DNA from: an uncultured archaeon
GTDB taxonomy: Archaea > Iainarchaeota > Iainarchaeia > Iainarchaeales > CSSED10-239
Assembly: GCA_964591795.1 (NCBI GenBank)
Contig: CAZQEL010000006.1
Span: 1 to 32,000 of the forward strand
Length of the DNA stretch: 32,000 nt
Reading direction: 5' to 3'
Shown here: positions 1-21,976 of the stretch, one piece after another
How the letters are laid out: every line of letters begins with the position of its first letter
Numbering within the stretch: position 1 is the stretch's first letter
Notes under the pieces: model-generated
What the model was told of the DNA's origin: nothing
Seen by the model: only the letters and a program-made list of their open reading frames with translations
Database searches by the model: none
Position numbers and translations under genes: made by a program

Positions 1-106
1 AACGAGCAGTATGCTCGTTAAAAATGAACAAGATGTCCAGCGGACATCTTGAATAGGTGTAGTAGAATGTAATTTAGAAGTCAGTAGTGCAGCGCACGAC
101 TGACTT
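1..106 (+). other. Cluster of three GC-rich stem-loops with 3-nt loops (1-19, 29-51, 78-106), immediately upstream of the DGR avd-like gene
   Basis: AACGAGCA-gta-TGCTCGTT (8 bp). CAAGATGTCC-agc-GGACATCTTG (10 bp). AAGTCAGT-a-GTGC-agc-GCAC-g-ACTGACTT (12 bp with one A/G mismatch). They are perfect or near-perfect complements and stand out in an AT-rich background. Function is inferred, not shown. Confidence 0.6.
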
Positions 107-558: not shown

Positions 559-637
559 AGGTTATCTTAAAATAATTATTTACAAGCGTGATTTAATTTA
601 TGGTGATAGAAGGCACCAATAGGTAGTTTAACATCAC

Positions 638-680
638 TAAAATAAATTTTACTTTTTTTTTAAAAGATAAATTTATTTTA
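638..680. repeat. AT-rich inverted repeat (12-bp arms TAAAATAAATTT / AAATTTATTTTA, 19-nt T-rich spacer) immediately upstream of candidate TR
   Basis: Arms at 638-649 and 669-680 are exact reverse complements. It shares the AAAATAAATTT core with the 109-149 repeat. Confidence 0.5.
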
Positions 681-681
681 A

Positions 682-807
682 AAAAGATCTTCTATAAACG
701 ACACAACCGAGTATAGCTCGTCCAATGCATATAAAATCAATATGAATAATGGAAATATCAACAATAACAATAAGAGCAATAACAACAATGTGCGTTGTGT
801 TCGCGAA
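682..807 (+). other. Candidate DGR template repeat (TR); boundaries approximate
   Basis: The frame is open from the stop at 679-681 and encodes KRSSINDTTEYSSSNAYKIN-MNNGNINNNNKSNNNN-VRCVRE. 11 of the 16 codons at 742-789 are AAY. The stretch ends in GC-rich GTGCGTTGTGTTCGCG. RT homology only begins after this. No VR is available in the window to fix the ends. Confidence 0.5.
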
Positions 808-2259
808 CATAAATTTACTTTCAAAGAGATTTATAAAGCATATCTTTCTTGTAGAAAAAACAAAAGAAATACTATTAATGCTTTAAAATTTGAAATTAAT
901 TTAGAAAGTAATTTACATGAGTTGGTTTATGTTTTAAATAATAAAACATACTTTCCAACTCGTTCTGTTTGTTTCTCTATAAAAGATCCTAAACCAAGAG
1001 AGGTTTTTGCAGCTGATTTTAAAGATAGGATTGTTCATCATGTTATTTATAATCATCTAAACCCTATTTATGAAAAAATATTTATATTTGATTCATTTGC
1101 TTGTAGAAAAGGAAAAGGAACTTTAAAAGCTGTAAAAAGATTACAATCTTTTACTTGTAAAATTACTAAAAATCAAACTAAAAAATGTTTTTATCTTCAA
1201 TTAGATATTTTTAATTTTTTTATGAGTATAGATAAAAATATTCTTTATAATATCTTATGTAAAAAAATAAAAAATAAAAATATATTACATTTATTAAAAA
1301 CAGTTCTTTTTCACAATCCTATCAATGATTATGTACAAAAAGGTCCTAATTATAAACAACAAAAAGTGCCTTTTCATAAATCTTTATTTAATGTTGAAAA
1401 TGGAAAAGGTCTTCCAATCGGCAATTTAACTTCTCAGTTGTTTGCAAATATTTATTTAAATGAACTTGATCAATATTTAAAGCATATTTTAAAAATAAAA
1501 TATTATGTTAGATATGTAGATGATTTTGTAATTCTTGCTGATAATAAAAAAGAACTTTTATTTTATAAATCTAAAATTACTTTTTTTTTAAATGATGCTC
1601 TTTCTTTAAGATTTAAAGAATCTAATTTATTAGCTCCAATAACTAATGGTATTAATTTTGTTGGTTATATTATAAAACCAAAATATCTTCTTTCAAGAAA
1701 TCGTAATATTAAAAATATTTATAAAAAATTAAATTTATTTAAAAAAGAAAATATTAATTTAAACTACAAATATACTCTTTTTAAATATGATAATATCTCT
1801 AATTTGATAAATTCTTTAAATAGTTATTTTGGCTATTTAAAACACTCAATGTGTAAAAAAATCATTGAAAATATTATTTTAAAATATTCTTTTTTAAATT
1901 TTTATGTTTATTTTAATGAAAACAAAGTATTGAGTATCTTTAAAAACAATATTTTTGATTTTAAATCTCAGCATTTATTTTTTAAAAATAAATTTGAAAA
2001 TACTATCATTTTTTTAGATGTTAATTTATTTTTTAGAGTGCTTTCAGATGATGCTTTATTTATAAATAATTATTTTATGTCTAATCTTAAAAAAACTAAT
2101 AATTATGTTTTTGTTGATATTTATAAAAAAAATTATTTATTTATAATAAATAAATTAATCACTAAAAATAAGAATATTATTGTTACAACTCAAGTTAATG
2201 AAGGTAATTTAGTTTATAGACAAATATTATCTTTTTATTTTTTGAATAAAAATATTTAA
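742..2259 (+). CDS. DGR-type reverse transcriptase (RNA-directed DNA polymerase)
   Basis: RT motifs: PREVFAADFKDRIVHHVIY, FACRKGKGT, YLQLDIFNFFMSID, and LPIGNLTSQLFANIYLNELD (IGxxxSQ at 1417-1437, the DGR hallmark). Also YVRYVDDFVIL (YVDD at 1513-1524) and GINFVGYII. The first ~22 codons are probably TR rather than RT. An alternative in-frame GTG start is at 790. The C-terminal ~120 aa are low-complexity. Confidence 0.88.
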   Translation: MNNGNINNNNKSNNNNVRCVREHKFTFKEIYKAYLSCRKNKRNTINALKFEINLESNLHELVYVLNNKTYFPTRSVCFSIKDPKPREVFAADFKDRIVHHVIYNHLNPIYEKIFIFDSFACRKGKGTLKAVKRLQSFTCKITKNQTKKCFYLQLDIFNFFMSIDKNILYNILCKKIKNKNILHLLKTVLFHNPINDYVQKGPNYKQQKVPFHKSLFNVENGKGLPIGNLTSQLFANIYLNELDQYLKHILKIKYYVRYVDDFVILADNKKELLFYKSKITFFLNDALSLRFKESNLLAPITNGINFVGYIIKPKYLLSRNRNIKNIYKKLNLFKKENINLNYKYTLFKYDNISNLINSLNSYFGYLKHSMCKKIIENIILKYSFLNFYVYFNENKVLSIFKNNIFDFKSQHLFFKNKFENTIIFLDVNLFFRVLSDDALFINNYFMSNLKKTNNYVFVDIYKKNYLFIINKLITKNKNIIVTTQVNEGNLVYRQILSFYFLNKNI

Positions 2260-9754: not shown

Positions 9755-9836
9755 GCAGAGGTGGCGGAGTGGTCAAACGCGCCAGCCTTGAGAGCTGGAG
9801 CCTCGTGCTACATGGGTTCGAATCCCATCCTCTGCG
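9755..9836 (+). tRNA. tRNA-Ser (anticodon UGA), class II with long variable arm
   Basis: Acceptor GCAGAGG/CCTCTGC. Anticodon stem CCAGC/GCTGG with loop CT-TGA-GA. Variable arm AGCCTCGTGCTAC. T arm ATGGG-TTCGAAT-CCCAT. Discriminator G. No encoded CCA. Followed by a T7 run. Confidence 0.93.
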
Positions 9837-9866
9837 CTTTTTTTAATTAATTTAAATTGTGATTTT

Positions 9867-10224: not shown

Positions 10225-10306
10225 GCAGAGGTGGCGGAGTGGTCAAACGCGCAAGCCTGGAAAGCTTGAGCCTCGTGCTACGCGAGTTCGAATCTCGTCC
10301 TCTGCG
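10225..10306 (+). tRNA. tRNA-Ser (anticodon GGA), class II
   Basis: Same acceptor, D arm and variable arm as the 9755 gene. Anticodon stem CAAGC/GCTTG with loop CT-GGA-AA. T arm GCGAG-TTCGAAT-CTCGT. Differences from the paralog are compensatory in the stems. Confidence 0.93.
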
Positions 10307-10320
10307 CTTATTTTTAATTA

Positions 10321-10830
10321 TTATAATTTTCCAAGTTTTGATGGTCTTTTAAACACCATTGATTTGTGTGCTGAAAATCTAGTTAAGTTCATAACTAAAT
10401 CCGCAGTTAATTTTGCAAAGATTGCTGGAAATTTAGCAAATTCAACAAGTCCAATCACCATTATGAAAATAAAAATTACTGTTGAAAAATTAATTATGTA
10501 ATATCTTGTGAAAGAAAATAAGTTTTTTTTAGAAAAAGTTTTACTTTCATCTTTAAATACAAATTTTTTATGTAAATTGTAGTTTACAAATGTTTTTATA
10601 AAATCAGAGAAGAAGGTTACTATAATATAATATAAATTTAGTGTATTTACAAAAGTATATATTAAGCCAACATCAACAAGGGTACCTATAAGACCTAATA
10701 CAGCATATTTAAAAAAACGTTTAATTCTATAAATTATAGAAAATGAAATAAACCAATAATATATTCTATAAATATAATGGTGTTTTTTTAATGTCACAAG
10801 AGAATGTGTAAAATCAGTTTTCGGTATCAT
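10321..10830 (-). CDS. GtrA-family membrane protein
   Basis: FFKYAVLGLIGTLVDVGLIY..., NYNLHKKFVFK and ...NLTRFSAHKSMVFK form the four-TM GtrA-like repeats. Confidence 0.7.
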   Translation of the reverse strand: MIPKTDFTHSLVTLKKHHYIYRIYYWFISFSIIYRIKRFFKYAVLGLIGTLVDVGLIYTFVNTLNLYYIIVTFFSDFIKTFVNYNLHKKFVFKDESKTFSKKNLFSFTRYYIINFSTVIFIFIMVIGLVEFAKFPAIFAKLTADLVMNLTRFSAHKSMVFKRPSKLGKL

Positions 10831-10976: not shown

Positions 10977-13856
10977 ATGTCTGTTGAAAAATATAAACTT
11001 GAAAAAGAAAAAGATTTCTTTAAGGAAATGGAAAATACAAGAATAGTTGTAAATGAAAATACTATTACTGATATTGAAAAAAAATTAAAAGAATCTAAAG
11101 AGCCTTCTATTAAAGAAGATGAATCTATATTAGAAGATGATACTTTAAATGAAGAAAAAGTTGTAACTAATAATAATTTAAATATAGACAAATCTACTGA
11201 AAATAATAATAATGACGAGAATAATAATAATGACAAAAATGATAATGATGATATTGTTTCATCTGTTGTAGAAGATGTAGATTCAATAGATTATAATCTA
11301 GATGTTATTAAAGAACAAGATATTAAAGAAAAACAAGATGTTACAAAAGAAATAAAAGAAACAATAGATAATTATAAAAAAAAAGAAATAAAAAAAGAAA
11401 TTGTTTCAGATAATATTAAACCTCAACTTAAATTTTTAGAAGATTTTGAAGATCCAAGTTGTGTATACTTAGGGCGTAAAAAATCAGTTTTGAAACAATA
11501 TGGTAAAATAGCTACAGCATACATTGGTAAGGTTGCTGAGAATCAACAAGAGGGTAAAAAAGTACACATTGATGGGCTAAATCCTCACGTAATCTTCTTG
11601 GATGGTGCAAGAGGAACTGGTAAGAGTTACCTTTTAGGTGTGATTGCTGAAGAGCTTGCATTAACTAATCCTTATATTGGACAAATTGTAATAGATCCTG
11701 TTGGTGTTTTTTGGTCAATGAAGTTTCCAAATAGAGATACTAAAGAATTAAAAATTTTAGAAGAATGGGGTCTTAAACCACAAGGACTTAAAAATATTAA
11801 AGTTTTTGTTCCAGAAGGAATTAAATCTCAAGTTTCAAAAGATACCTATGATGATACATTTTCAATGTACCCATCTTTGTTAACTCCAGAAGACTGGTGT
11901 TTAACATATGGTATTGAAAGATTTTCTCCATCAGGTCTTCTTTTAGAAAAAACACTTGCGTCTGTAAAGAAAGGTTATATTACTGGCGGTACAAAAGATG
12001 TACCTGATGTTAAAAAAATATCAGCAAAAGGAAATCATTATAGTTTAGAAAATATAATAGATTGTTTACAAAATAATTCTGAATTTCAATCAGCTCAAAA
12101 AGGATATAAACCAGATTCAATAAGAGCATTGGTTTCAAGATTTGAAGCTGCAAGATCCTGGGGTATTTTTTCAAATTCAGGAACACCTCTTTCAAAATTA
12201 TCACGAGAAAACCAATTAACTGTTCTTGATACTTCTTTTTTAGATGAAAATATTACAGCATTAGTAATTGGTATTTTAGCTAGAAGAATTTTATCTGCAA
12301 GAAAACTTTTAGCACGTCAAGAAGCTGTTAAAAAATATGAGGATTCTGAACAAAAAGCAGAAGAACTTTTAGAAATTGAAATTCCACCTACATGGATGTA
12401 TATTGATGAAGCACACACCTTAATTCCATCTGGTAATTCTCAAACACCAGCAACTGCTGGAATTATTGAATATGTAAAACAAGGAAGAAGACCTGGTTGT
12501 TCATTAGTATTTGCAACACAACAACCTTCAGCAATTAACACTAAGGTATTGTCTCAAGTAGATATATTAATTTCGAATAAATTAGTTTTTAATGATGATA
12601 TTTCAGCTATTCAGAAAAGAATGCCTACAATTATTCCTAAACAATATAAGGAACCAAATTTTATAAAAACATTACCTTTTGCAACTGCACTTGTTGGTGA
12701 CAGGTCAGAAGAAACTTCAAGAGCATTTATTTTAAGAGCAGTTCCACGTAAATCTCAACATGAAGGTCGTGATGCTGAAACAATCAGAGAAATTCCTAAG
12801 AAGACTAAATCTGAAGTGCTTAAAATTGTAGGAAATTTAATTTATAAAAAACTTGAAGAAACAAAGGAAATAAAAGTAAGTTTTGCAAAAGATATTTTAG
12901 ATATTGTAAATATTAAATATAGATCTGATGCTTATTGGGATGAAGTTTTAGAAAAGCTTTTTGAAAAGAAAGTAGTTTTAGAAAAAGAATTACTTTTTTT
13001 AAACACTACATTTATGGATGAAAAACCTGTTGAAAAAACAGTTTTAATTGATGAAAATAAATTGAATGAATCTGATGAAGTTTTAGAAATGTCTGAAACT
13101 TTAGATGATAATAAACTGGTTTTTCAAAAAGTTAAAACTAGAACTACAATTGTTGAAAGAATAAGTAAAAGTACAATTGAAGAAATGGCAAAATCAAAAA
13201 TAAGTAGTATATTTTCAATTTTCAAGCCAAAGGAAACAATTCAAACTATTGTTTTATGGTATCGTGGTGTATATAAGTTAAATTATAATTTATATGATGA
13301 TGATGAAAATTATAAAAAAATGAACTGTTATGTTGATTCAGTTACTGGTGAGTTAATTCATTTTAAAAATGGAGAATTTAAAATTTCAAAAGGATTAAGT
13401 GTTTTAGAATATATAGATTCTGATGATGTTGAATTATTATATCTTTTAAAAAAGCAACACACTTTATTTTCATTAAATCAAGAAACAAACATTTTAGAAA
13501 AAGACTTAATTCCAAAAATAGATGTTTTTAAAGAATATAAATTAATAAACATTAAAGAAAATAATAATAGAGAAATATATAAGTTGTCTGAAAATTTTGA
13601 TGTTCCATTTGATGCCTCTCTATCTATTTTAAGTTCTTTAGAGGTTTTACCTTTAAAAAAGCAAGATGTTGAATTTTTAGAAGGAATTAATTATTCTTTA
13701 TTAAAAATACAAGATTTATTAAATAAATTATGGGGAGAAATTGAGTTTGTGTTAACTGAAGAAATATTTTGGCCTATTTGGCATATTACTTATGTTGATT
13801 CTAAAAATAACTCTAGACTTCTAAGGATTGATGCAATTACAGGAAAAGAAATGTAA
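10977..13856 (+). CDS. HerA/DUF87-like P-loop ATPase with acidic low-complexity N-terminus and long C-terminal extension
   Basis: Walker A: FLDGARGTGKSYLLG. IDPVGVFW. Walker B: WMYIDEAHTLIP. GRRPGCSLVFATQQPSAINTKVLSQVDILISNKL matches the HerA/FtsK-class core. The N-terminal ~150 aa are E/K/N/D-rich. Confidence 0.7.
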   Translation: MSVEKYKLEKEKDFFKEMENTRIVVNENTITDIEKKLKESKEPSIKEDESILEDDTLNEEKVVTNNNLNIDKSTENNNNDENNNNDKNDNDDIVSSVVEDVDSIDYNLDVIKEQDIKEKQDVTKEIKETIDNYKKKEIKKEIVSDNIKPQLKFLEDFEDPSCVYLGRKKSVLKQYGKIATAYIGKVAENQQEGKKVHIDGLNPHVIFLDGARGTGKSYLLGVIAEELALTNPYIGQIVIDPVGVFWSMKFPNRDTKELKILEEWGLKPQGLKNIKVFVPEGIKSQVSKDTYDDTFSMYPSLLTPEDWCLTYGIERFSPSGLLLEKTLASVKKGYITGGTKDVPDVKKISAKGNHYSLENIIDCLQNNSEFQSAQKGYKPDSIRALVSRFEAARSWGIFSNSGTPLSKLSRENQLTVLDTSFLDENITALVIGILARRILSARKLLARQEAVKKYEDSEQKAEELLEIEIPPTWMYIDEAHTLIPSGNSQTPATAGIIEYVKQGRRPGCSLVFATQQPSAINTKVLSQVDILISNKLVFNDDISAIQKRMPTIIPKQYKEPNFIKTLPFATALVGDRSEETSRAFILRAVPRKSQHEGRDAETIREIPKKTKSEVLKIVGNLIYKKLEETKEIKVSFAKDILDIVNIKYRSDAYWDEVLEKLFEKKVVLEKELLFLNTTFMDEKPVEKTVLIDENKLNESDEVLEMSETLDDNKLVFQKVKTRTTIVERISKSTIEEMAKSKISSIFSIFKPKETIQTIVLWYRGVYKLNYNLYDDDENYKKMNCYVDSVTGELIHFKNGEFKISKGLSVLEYIDSDDVELLYLLKKQHTLFSLNQETNILEKDLIPKIDVFKEYKLINIKENNNREIYKLSENFDVPFDASLSILSSLEVLPLKKQDVEFLEGINYSLLKIQDLLNKLWGEIEFVLTEEIFWPIWHITYVDSKNNSRLLRIDAITGKEM

Positions 13857-15306: not shown

Positions 15307-16224
15307 GTGATTAGTATGAATTATAGATTAGCTTTAATTATTTTATTAGTGTTATTAATGACTCCATTTATCTTTTCAGATATTTCTTTAACTATAGATG
15401 GTTCATTAAATAATTTTTATATTTCAAATAATTCTTCAAAAAATGTACCTATTAATCTTATTTCTGATTATTCTGGGTCATTTGGTAATAATTTAAGAGC
15501 AGAATATACTTTAGATTCTTTTTCTACTTTAAATAATTTAGAAGTTAGTTTATCTAAAAAAGAGGAATATTTTCTATCTAATGTAAACTCTCAAATTTCA
15601 TTAAATATAAGATCATATAGATTTAATGATCAAAAAATAAAATTAAAAATTAAAGCTTCATTATTTGATGTTTATAATAATCTTTTAGATTCTAGTTATA
15701 TTTATGTTGATTTAATTTCAAATAATTCTGAATATGATTTTTCAGGAAGTCCAAAAAATAAAGTTCCAGAATATAAGGGTTATTCTTTATCTAAAAAAAA
15801 ACTATTAATTTTAAATCAATTAGATAGTGATAAAATTACTATTACAAACCATATTGATAATAAAATTTCTTATGGTACAAAATGTTCTGTAGATAAAGAA
15901 GGATTAATTTTAAATTTAAGATATATAGGAAATAACCAATATTCTTTAAGGGTTAGTATTGATCAAAATAAGTTTGTTGATAAAGATATTTTTACAATTA
16001 ATTGTGTAGCTTATTATAGAGAAAATAATTTTACTATTAAACCAATTAATGTAATATATTTAAATCAAGATTTAAATTTACCTTTAGAAACTGTAATTAA
16101 GGAAGATGAATATTTAAATCAAGATTTAAATTTATCTTTAGAAACCGTAATTAAGAAAGATGAGATTAAAAATAGCGCTATTAAAGATTTTTTTAATAAA
16201 ATATTAATTAAACTAAAAAGTTAA
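15307..16224 (+). CDS. Hypothetical secreted/surface protein with signal-peptide-like N-terminus
   Basis: N-terminal hydrophobic stretch LALIILLVLLMTPFIFS. Asn/Ser-rich. Contains a tandem 18-aa duplication near the C-terminus. Confidence 0.55.
   Translation: MISMNYRLALIILLVLLMTPFIFSDISLTIDGSLNNFYISNNSSKNVPINLISDYSGSFGNNLRAEYTLDSFSTLNNLEVSLSKKEEYFLSNVNSQISLNIRSYRFNDQKIKLKIKASLFDVYNNLLDSSYIYVDLISNNSEYDFSGSPKNKVPEYKGYSLSKKKLLILNQLDSDKITITNHIDNKISYGTKCSVDKEGLILNLRYIGNNQYSLRVSIDQNKFVDKDIFTINCVAYYRENNFTIKPINVIYLNQDLNLPLETVIKEDEYLNQDLNLSLETVIKKDEIKNSAIKDFFNKILIKLKS
16057..16164 (+). repeat. Two tandem 54-bp in-frame repeats (YLNQDLNLPLETVIKEDE / YLNQDLNLSLETVIKKDE)
   Basis: 16057-16110 and 16111-16164 differ at only a few positions, read directly from the sequence. 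Confidence 0.9.
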
Positions 16225-21856: not shown

Positions 21857-21976
21857 ATGTTAGCGGCCATAGGGATGGAGAAACACCTGGACCCTTTTCG
21901 AACCCAGAAGTTAAGTCTATTGCCGTTTTTATTTGCTGTTAGTTCTTGCTAGCTGCGATATTAAAGCTGCTAACAT
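21857..21976 (+). rRNA. rrf: 5S ribosomal RNA (not linked to 16S/23S in this window)
   Basis: Terminal helix ATGTTAGCGGC / GCTGCTAACAT. Conserved core CCATAGGGATGGAGAAACACCTGGACCCTTTTCGAACCCAGAAGTTAAG. T-runs downstream. Confidence 0.9.

Follow-up and report, generated by a model that had tools for sequence, protein, structure and literature searches.

In the diversity-generating retroelement (DGR) of Bordetella phage BPP-1, the mechanistic prototype, whose parts lie in the order mtd-avd-TR-brt, the template repeat (TR) is flanked by pairing RNA segments (PMC3240598; PMC6182149; bioRxiv 10.1101/2023.10.23.563531) and loops out between an upstream:downstream duplex and a priming duplex. Between TR and brt lie 144 nt of non-coding spacer, which hold stem-loops bound by Avd and by bRT, the priming adenosine and one strand of the cPRT Stop duplex; putative equivalents of the BPP-1 RNA elements have been reported for 207 of 278 DGRs, based on the 40 nt before and the 100 nt after the TR. 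In BPP-1 and other DGRs a hairpin of 7-10 bp, located 4-34 bp past the variable repeat (VR), is a known target signal (PMC3240598). For DGRs of the Legionella type (DUF1566/Lcl_C, CLec2, category 'd'), Wu et al. (2018; PMC5758913) described TRs as 'directly adjacent' to the reverse transcriptase (RT) gene and the TR as not translated in vivo. An overlap of the TR with the annotated RT open reading frame (ORF) has been catalogued as a cassette class, DiGReF group 3 (Schillinger et al., 2012; PMC3521204), and our literature search found no other mention of TR/RT overlap besides DiGReF. Here we describe a DGR at one end of a 32-kb stretch of archaeal chromosome (contig CAZQEL010000006.1, positions 1 to 32,000; 76% A+T), hereafter the window. 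Taking all the evidence together, the best explanation, and in our judgement a very likely one, is that positions 705-806 are the TR of a complete and apparently active DGR, and that the 3' two-thirds of this TR supply the start of the RT.

The gene order at this locus is a target gene with the VR at its 3' end (upstream of the window), three hairpins (1-106), an avd-like gene, a structured leader, the TR and the RT. With BPP-1 the locus shares the same parts in the same order, adenine-specific differences between the repeats, a GC-rich 3' block common to TR and VR, a hairpin past the VR and a TR flanked by RNA segments predicted to pair. It differs in that the target fold is of the Lcl_C/DUF1566 type, not Mtd, in that the hairpin loop is GTA, not GRNA, and in the absence of a non-coding spacer of ~140 nt, the corresponding positions being coding and lying within the first ~57 RT codons. 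The Legionella type resembles it in having the VR in a DUF1566/Lcl_C-like C-terminal domain, an Avd or Avd-like gene, a TR directly upstream of the RT and, for a few RTs, a MutS_I-like C-terminal extension; the present element differs in its archaeal host and in a target with a pilin/archaellin-like N terminus and PKD-like repeats. The DGRs of Nanoarchaeota and other DPANN archaea (Paul et al., 2015, PMC4372165; Handa et al., 2016, PMC5006420) are alike in their archaeal host, small AT-rich genome, compact cassette and variable protein with a C-type-lectin fold, and a term search of PMC4372165 found no statement of TR/RT overlap. DiGReF group 3, in which the TR overlaps the 5' or 3' end of the RT ORF, shares this overlap and the order target/VR, TR, RT on one strand, but PMC3521204 only catalogues the overlap as an annotation; added here are that the overlap is forced by the start codons, that it is clade-wide and that RNA elements flanking the TR reach into coding sequence. 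The element is a further instance of an already catalogued architecture, to which we add exact boundaries, an argument from the start codons and an RNA frame supported by covariation.

The preliminary description of this DNA, made from the window alone, had proposed that an AAY-rich stretch within 682-807 is a DGR TR. Inside the window no partner VR was found, either by a generic repeat finder or by an adenine-tolerant scan of both strands; the sole strong repeat (9755-9858 against 10225-10328) was rejected as a TR/VR pair, since it consists of two tRNA-Ser genes. The VR was found just outside the window. Exact-protein look-up with the Avd sequence yielded six public contigs (L001-L006) sharing exactly this protein; L001 and L002 (4030 nt) match the window with no mismatches across a 2005-nt overlap (window position = L001 position - 2025) and reach 2 kb upstream of it, into a target gene of 641 aa; its stop codon is found 13 nt ahead of window position 1. 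The VR forms the last ~100 nt (~35 codons) of this gene and ends ~19 nt before position 1. It aligns with the TR over 102 nt without gaps, with 17-18 differences per allele at TR adenines and 0-1 elsewhere; given that 44 of the 102 TR bases are A, the hypergeometric probability of this bias is P=3e-7. Alignment to the VR, a check set beforehand, fixed the TR ends at 705 and 806. The 3' end of the proposed interval thus stood, whereas its 5' boundary at 682 did not: homology to the VR begins at 705/706, nothing in 559-704 matches the VR, and 682-704 is conserved among relatives as one arm of RNA helix B, described below.

At the 3' end the TR and VR share the GC-rich block GTGCGTTGTGTTCGCGA, past which the VR reads CCCATAACC and the TR reads ACATAAATT, the divergence expected between an initiation of mutagenic homology (IMH) element and its IMH* counterpart. 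The codons at 790-805 (GTGCGTTGTGTTCGCG) encode VRCVR, which is also the end of the Lcl_C (predicted C-type-lectin-fold) domain of the target, so that both resemblances suggested for these codons beforehand, to the end of a C-type-lectin VR and to a GC-rich IMH-like terminus, were borne out. In all, 26 sites are variable, 18 of them at or past 742, inside the annotated RT ORF; they fall mostly at codon positions 1 and 2. Three VR alleles were seen across samples, each the consensus sequence of a contig: those of L001 and L002 differ at one TR-adenine site, and a third is found in L003, L004 and L006. The TR is identical in all six contigs, and over the avd-TR-RT stretch L003, L004 and L006 show one difference from L001 (L001 position 2686) and L005 none. 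Judged from these alleles, the element may still be active.

The other DGR components are recognizable. The RT translation contains the motifs PIGNLTSQ and YVRYVDDF (YVDD). Its best solved-structure match is 8ub7_A (E=1.3e-38), which we take to be the Bordetella bRT; group II intron RTs reach ~1e-11. The avd-like gene is of the right size and occupies the same position in all relatives, and the orthologues of some relatives give a stronger bAvd match. Among the best 120 of 6004 RT homologues the closest named one belongs to a Woesearchaeota metagenome-assembled genome (48% identity); a scan of a genome collection gave, among the matches listed, bacterial DGRs of 31-50% identity, and a scan of a metagenome collection with a single protein gave at least five loci. 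Close relatives were gathered by exact-protein look-ups.

The target has a Pfam Lcl_C (DUF1566-type) match at aa 511-639 (45.3 bits against a cut-off of 34.9 bits) and PKD-like repeats. Residues 7-133 of the target (L001 88-2013) weakly resemble the archaeal flagellin chain 8fk7_A (E=4e-4), and from its domains the protein may be a variable lectin on a pilin- or archaellin-like surface protein. Two observations concern the target gene upstream of the VR. In an ungapped comparison L003, L004 and L006 show many mismatches in the gene body, a picture that indels could equally give. L001 and L002, assemblies of the same 4030-nt contig, differ by four substitutions within 5 nt (positions 1799-1803), ~100 nt upstream of the VR, for which adenine mutagenesis is no explanation.

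Hairpin 1 is, by analogy with the target signals cited above, a candidate DGR target-site hairpin or cruciform. Its structure is kept in L092, L094 and L096, with a different stem sequence in L096; L092 and L094 carry hairpin 2 unchanged and L096 a varied form of it, and all three have equivalents of hairpin 3. Hairpins 1 and 2 are the only perfect hairpins in the 32 kb with a stem of at least 7 bp and at least 4 G/C per arm. Hairpins 2 and 3 are conserved features of the interval from target gene to avd; each carries a C-AGC-G loop, and no comparable GC-containing hairpin is present elsewhere in the 32 kb.

The TR and the RT ORF overlap by 65 nt, and 7 nt separate the end of the TR from the conserved RT core, which starts at Phe25 (814); the invariant columns of a 32-sequence alignment begin at Y34/C37. 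Recognizable RT homology had been placed at FTF from ~811, which was slightly off: FTF begins at 814, and 811-813 is Lys24. Behind the TAA at 679-681 the same frame is open from 682, and between this stop and the core the only in-frame ATG, GTG or TTG codons are ATG 742 and GTG 790, the two listed in the preliminary description. Because both of these canonical starts lie inside the TR, translation of part of the TR is unavoidable with canonical initiation. The predicted overlap of the TR with the RT start is thereby upheld, as is the view that the first ~22 annotated RT residues are TR-derived, codons 1-22 falling within 705-806. The RT gene has no separate 5' end, and the RT frame is the VR frame of the TR. 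Translation from ATG 742 seems to us rather likely on comparative grounds, because, like L001, the relatives L088, L089, L092, L094 and L096 (RT identity 61-79%) retain an ATG at position -72 relative to the core, while the GTG position is lost in L089, L094 and L096. ATG 742 is at the same time the Met of a conserved lectin motif (...NMNNGN...) and is mutagenized to CTG in the VR of L092. No Shine-Dalgarno-like sequence was found before ATG 742 or GTG 790. A conserved ATGGTGA (600-606) was rejected as the true RT start: among relatives it lies 203-264 nt from the core, mostly not a multiple of 3, and in the window it opens an ORF of 8 codons.

A quite different account of the region would be that it holds an ordinary low-complexity Asn run of an AT-rich genome, or that the true TR lies elsewhere, for instance in 559-680. 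The base composition of the genome and a second Asn/Asp-rich stretch at ~11199-11250 might suggest the former. The codon and base counts of the preliminary description hold: positions 742-789 read ATG AAT AAT GGA AAT ATC AAC AAT AAC AAT AAG AGC AAT AAC AAC AAT, with AAY in 11 of 16 codons and A at 28 of 48 bases. Such a density is not background composition, because despite the 76% A+T no other site reaches it; at least 11 AAY codons occur in 3 of 63,906 16-codon windows in six frames, and all three overlap 742-789, the runner-up (11199-11250) having 10 of 16. With a VR that aligns exactly to 705-806 with adenine-specific differences, and with no VR match in 559-704, we give this account practically no credence. 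The runner-up (NNNNDENNNNDKNDNDD) is a low-complexity Asn/Asp run in the protein of a 959-aa ORF, which has a weak HerA-like match; the run is without a GC-rich end and is not TR-like. An alternative that accepts the TR as described has the RT start at GTG 790, with only the invariant GC-rich 17 nt translated (MRCVREHKFTF...) and the AAY part of the ORF an artefact of calling the longest frame. This GTG is in frame and present in L001, L088 and L092, and a start 8 codons before FTF resembles those of homologues that begin near the core (P0014 MIVNEHIFTF, P0082 MFTFEQIY); against this, the equivalent codon is GTC, GTA or GTT in L089, L094 and L096, whose RTs are 61-76% identical, and Ala in P0010, P0011 and P0013, and the ATG is kept in all six close relatives. 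We therefore regard initiation at GTG 790 as unlikely.

It could also be argued that the Asn-rich N terminus is a selected, functional part of the RT, and that the in-frame layout is kept for the sake of the protein. The preliminary description had named conservation of this N terminus as protein sequence in homologous RTs as an argument against a TR, and taken literally it is there: an in-frame, TR-like, Asn-rich and lectin-like N terminus occurs in 90 of the best 120 homologues, archaeal and bacterial, many of which carry a precomputed Lcl_C (PF07603) match on the RT protein, and in several homologues, for want of a canonical start between TR and core, the TR-encoded peptide must be made. 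The TR is not refuted by this, however, because the stretches are themselves TRs; in every relative for which the target gene is available, the N-terminal coding stretch is a TR with its own adenine-mismatched VR, and what is conserved is the scaffold of the lectin VR. Moreover, ~22-24 of the 120 start at or within a few residues of the core (P0082, P0086 and P0097 begin right at it, P0082 with MFTFEQIY...), and in three (P0099, P0102 and P0116) the TR is in another frame. An adenine-tolerant search of 80 reference-genome loci, mostly bacterial, gave TR/VR pairs in 51 (52 including the positive control L001), and in most of these 52 a distance of 0-45 nt separates the end of the TR homology from the codon that aligns with F25; in most, too, the interval up to the core is free of canonical starts. 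Which frame the TR takes relative to the RT depends on the lineage: 10 loci are in frame and 4 at +1, and in ~37 proteobacterial loci the AAY frame is at +2 and thus not that of the RT. Since the length of the TR-encoded peptide varies among homologues from 0 to >60 residues, it is unlikely to be needed by the enzyme, and we consider a selected N-terminal function improbable. Rather, the first 22 residues of the RT are, on this comparative evidence, probably TR-encoded with no function of their own. Judged from these alignments, overlap of the TR with the RT start is common in this RT clade, not unusual.

Three observations on relatives may be added here. The in-frame N-terminal peptide of P0098 (FNGGLVSYVDKGHDYNYMARC) looks like an adenine-mutagenized version of the TR peptide of its relative P0072 (FNNGNINNDDKGNDNNNMARC), and by this likeness the TR of P0098 may itself have been overwritten or have decayed. 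In L092 (3141-3260) and L094 (3097-3215) the TR/VR homology runs on beyond the GC-rich block. Genes of toxin-antitoxin type (UPF0175, MazE/PrlF, RHH/ParE and YoeB) lie shortly downstream of the RT in L092 (6228-6916), L096 (6811-7297) and L100 (3658-3987).

Within the spacer from avd to TR, two blocks (600-617 and 683-699) hardly vary among relatives. RNAalifold, applied to an alignment of 12 relatives of 47-79% RT identity, predicts two helices, A and B, whose arms are listed in the Table. Helix B pairs 608-614 with 686 and 688-693 (7 bp, three pairs with compensatory changes), with 100% of alignment cells paired. For the two helices together 99.4% of cells are paired, against 30-55% in slid controls; compensatory double changes occur in 6 of the 14 pairs, and the covariation score was reached by none of 500 shuffles. 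The compensatory sets of helix A are ATTTATG/CATAAAT, ATATATG/CATATAT, ACTCATG/CATGAGT and ATTCATG/CATGAAT, and RT codon 24 (AAA/AAG/GAG/GAA/ATA/ACG, for K/E/I/T) covaries with the non-coding 5' arm ~210 nt upstream. Immediately 3' of the helix A 3' arm begins helix D, the outer stem of a predicted stem-loop domain D/E, in which 95.4% of cells are paired, against 26-48% in slid controls, and in which one helix D pair occurs as U-A, A-U, G-C and U-G. The layout is 5' arm of A, 5' arm of B, a variable ~70 nt, 3' arm of B, 11 nt, the TR, 1 nt, 3' arm of A and the D/E domain, and the covariation supports a TR forming a loop of ~112 nt closed by helices A and B. The partners differ from those of BPP-1: of the two segments that directly flank the TR here, the 5' one pairs with sequence further upstream and the 3' one with sequence ~100 nt ahead of the TR. 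In L092 and L094 the target stop codon TAA aligns with RT codon Lys24 (AAG/AAA), and therefore the RT ORF looks like a copy of the last codons of the target, with the stop made sense, fused to an RT. Past the GC-rich block, the positions at which VR and TR differ in these two loci are those that form helix A in the TR transcript.

Two other pairings were considered and rejected. In a single-sequence fold the 5' flank of the TR (CGACACAAC) paired with its 3' end (GTTGTGTTCG), but substitutions on the 5' side in L088, L089 and L096 are not compensated on the other. The second candidate, in which the pre-TR block would pair with 835-852 (AGAT and TATAAA of 685-699 with TTTATA and ATCT), is disrupted by substitutions in the same three relatives, as judged by eye. 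In 51 related loci, a generic longest-stem statistic between the 160 nt before the TR and the 45 nt after it gave no better value than shuffles did (mean 8.5 vs 8.5) and was uninformative. In seven proteobacterial loci (L037, L038, L044, L047, L061, L068 and L081) a complementary pair recurs: TGAATCTG, located ~135-145 nt ahead of the TR, could pair with CAGATTCA at the 3' end of the TR, and ATATCTG/CAGATAT and TGGTCTG/CAGATCA occur as variants. This recurrent complementarity suggests that a long-range helix closing the TR may be widespread in the RT clade.

By homology to characterized DGRs, the TR-containing RNA would be reverse-transcribed by an RT-Avd complex with misincorporation opposite adenines, and the cDNA would then replace the VR, with the GC-rich block common to both repeats (790-806) and the hairpin past the VR as guides. 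AAY codons would thereby be re-coded in the C-type-lectin-fold tip of a surface protein, and the RT, initiating at ATG 742, would bear its 22-residue TR-encoded stretch. Separate transcription of the TR and RT RNAs, as suggested in PMC3521204, does not fit easily with the present layout. One possible extension, which we put forward tentatively and think doubtful, is that the template RNA and the RT mRNA are one bifunctional molecule whose translation and use as template are mutually exclusive, giving a switch or a cis-preference. With the start codon inside the TR loop, the first translating ribosome would have to melt helix A, whose 3' arm covers RT codons 23-25, as well as the stem-loop in codons 25-57; in the cis-preference variant, the newly made RT would capture the RNA that encoded it. 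If this were true, the TR would be translated, contrary to its usual description as non-coding. Should the RT be made from a canonical start, the TR would be translated in part, and the statement of Wu et al. (2018) to the contrary could not hold in full here.

Several points weigh against the interpretation of 705-806 as the template of an active DGR that also starts its RT gene. One TR/VR difference does not fall at an adenine (C783, which is T in the VR of L001 and L002), and the apparent continuing activity is read from VR alleles in assembled contigs. The choice of ATG 742 over GTG 790 is a comparative one from six fairly close relatives; in a more distant subgroup (L097 and L100-L102) the codon that corresponds to ATG 742 encodes Leu or Phe, canonical starts being confined to sequence upstream of the whole TR, and in the wider family the start position is, as aligned, not conserved. 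The Avd scores fall below the curated cut-offs (bAvd, 26.3 bits vs 40; DivGenRetAVD, 33.2 bits vs 80). Domain D/E lies in well-conserved coding sequence, the conservation of which is partly driven by the protein, coding constraint being a confounder, and a priming site and roles for the helices can be proposed by analogy only.

The known DGR paradigm is unchanged by these results, which bear more on how such elements are annotated and modelled. In this large clade, gene calls for the RT routinely include an N-terminal 'Lcl_C/DUF1566' piece that is in fact TR; RTs can therefore pass for target proteins in domain-based searches, and such TRs will escape finders that mask coding sequence. In the BPP-1 model all cis-acting RNA lies in the non-coding spacer, whereas here these functions would share sequence with the first ~57 RT codons, and window positions 596-911 offer a natural, covariation-defined construct for finding universal RNA elements. 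A diversified lectin tip on a surface protein would fit the role proposed for DGRs in attachment by host-dependent microbes.

Table. Positions (in the window) of the components of the DGR and of predicted nucleic acid structures around its TR
Feature	Position	Strand	Remarks
Hairpin 1	1-19	+	Perfect 8 bp, AACGAGCA-GTA-TGCTCGTT; begins 21 nt past GC-rich end of VR
Hairpin 2	29-51	+	10-bp stem CAAGATGTCC / GGACATCTTG, loop AGC
Hairpin 3, imperfect	78-106	+	AAGTCAGT-A-GTGC-AGC-GCAC-G-ACTGACTT, loop AGC; DNA fold
avd-like accessory gene, 124 aa	184-558	+	Pfam bAvd E=1.1e-5; NCBIfam DivGenRetAVD E=4.8e-8
Predicted RNA helix A, 5' arm (ATTTATG)	596-602	+	Pairs with 808-814; 7 bp, 3 pairs with compensatory changes
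Predicted RNA helix B, 5' arm (AGAAGGC)	608-614	+	Inside nearly invariant block ATGGTGATAGAAG[G/A]CACC (600-617)
Predicted RNA helix B, 3' arm (G.TCTTCT)	686-693	+	Inside conserved block AAAGATCTTCTAYAAA; ends 11 nt before TR
TR	705-806	+	Gapless alignment to VR of L001, L002, L003, L004 and L006
TR, adenine-mutagenized part	705-788	+	
RT ORF, 505 aa	742-2259	+	Pfam RVT_1 E=5.5e-17; codons 1-22 are TR sequence
TR, invariant GC-rich 3' block	790-806	+	
Predicted RNA helix A, 3' arm (CATAAAT)	808-814	+	RT codons His23 and Lys24 and first base of Phe25
Predicted stem-loop domain D/E	815-911	+	Within RT codons 25-57; helix D 815-822:904-911
Inner helices of domain D/E	831-836:890-895 and 837-841:878-882	+	

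Downstream of the RT the window continues with housekeeping genes (FKBP, proteasome and aCPSF1). Its archaeal host genes include aCPSF1 and an archaeal CCA-adding enzyme, both above equivalog cut-offs, as well as a proteasome subunit. The C-terminal extension of the RT (aa 408-495; window 1963-2226) has a weak MutS_I match (PF01624, E=0.0017), and the same precomputed match is present on many of the best 120 RT homologues; such an extension was mentioned for only three RTs by Wu et al. (2018; PMC5758913). A module of mismatch-binding type on a mutagenic RT could be worth studying. Elsewhere in the window, the two tRNA-Ser genes (9755-9837 and 10225-10307, anticodons TGA and GGA), 86% identical over 104 nt, flank a 110-aa ORF, a 5S rRNA gene is located at 21859-21975, and a 54-nt unit is tandemly duplicated (94% identical) at 16056-16163, inside the ORF 15307-16224.

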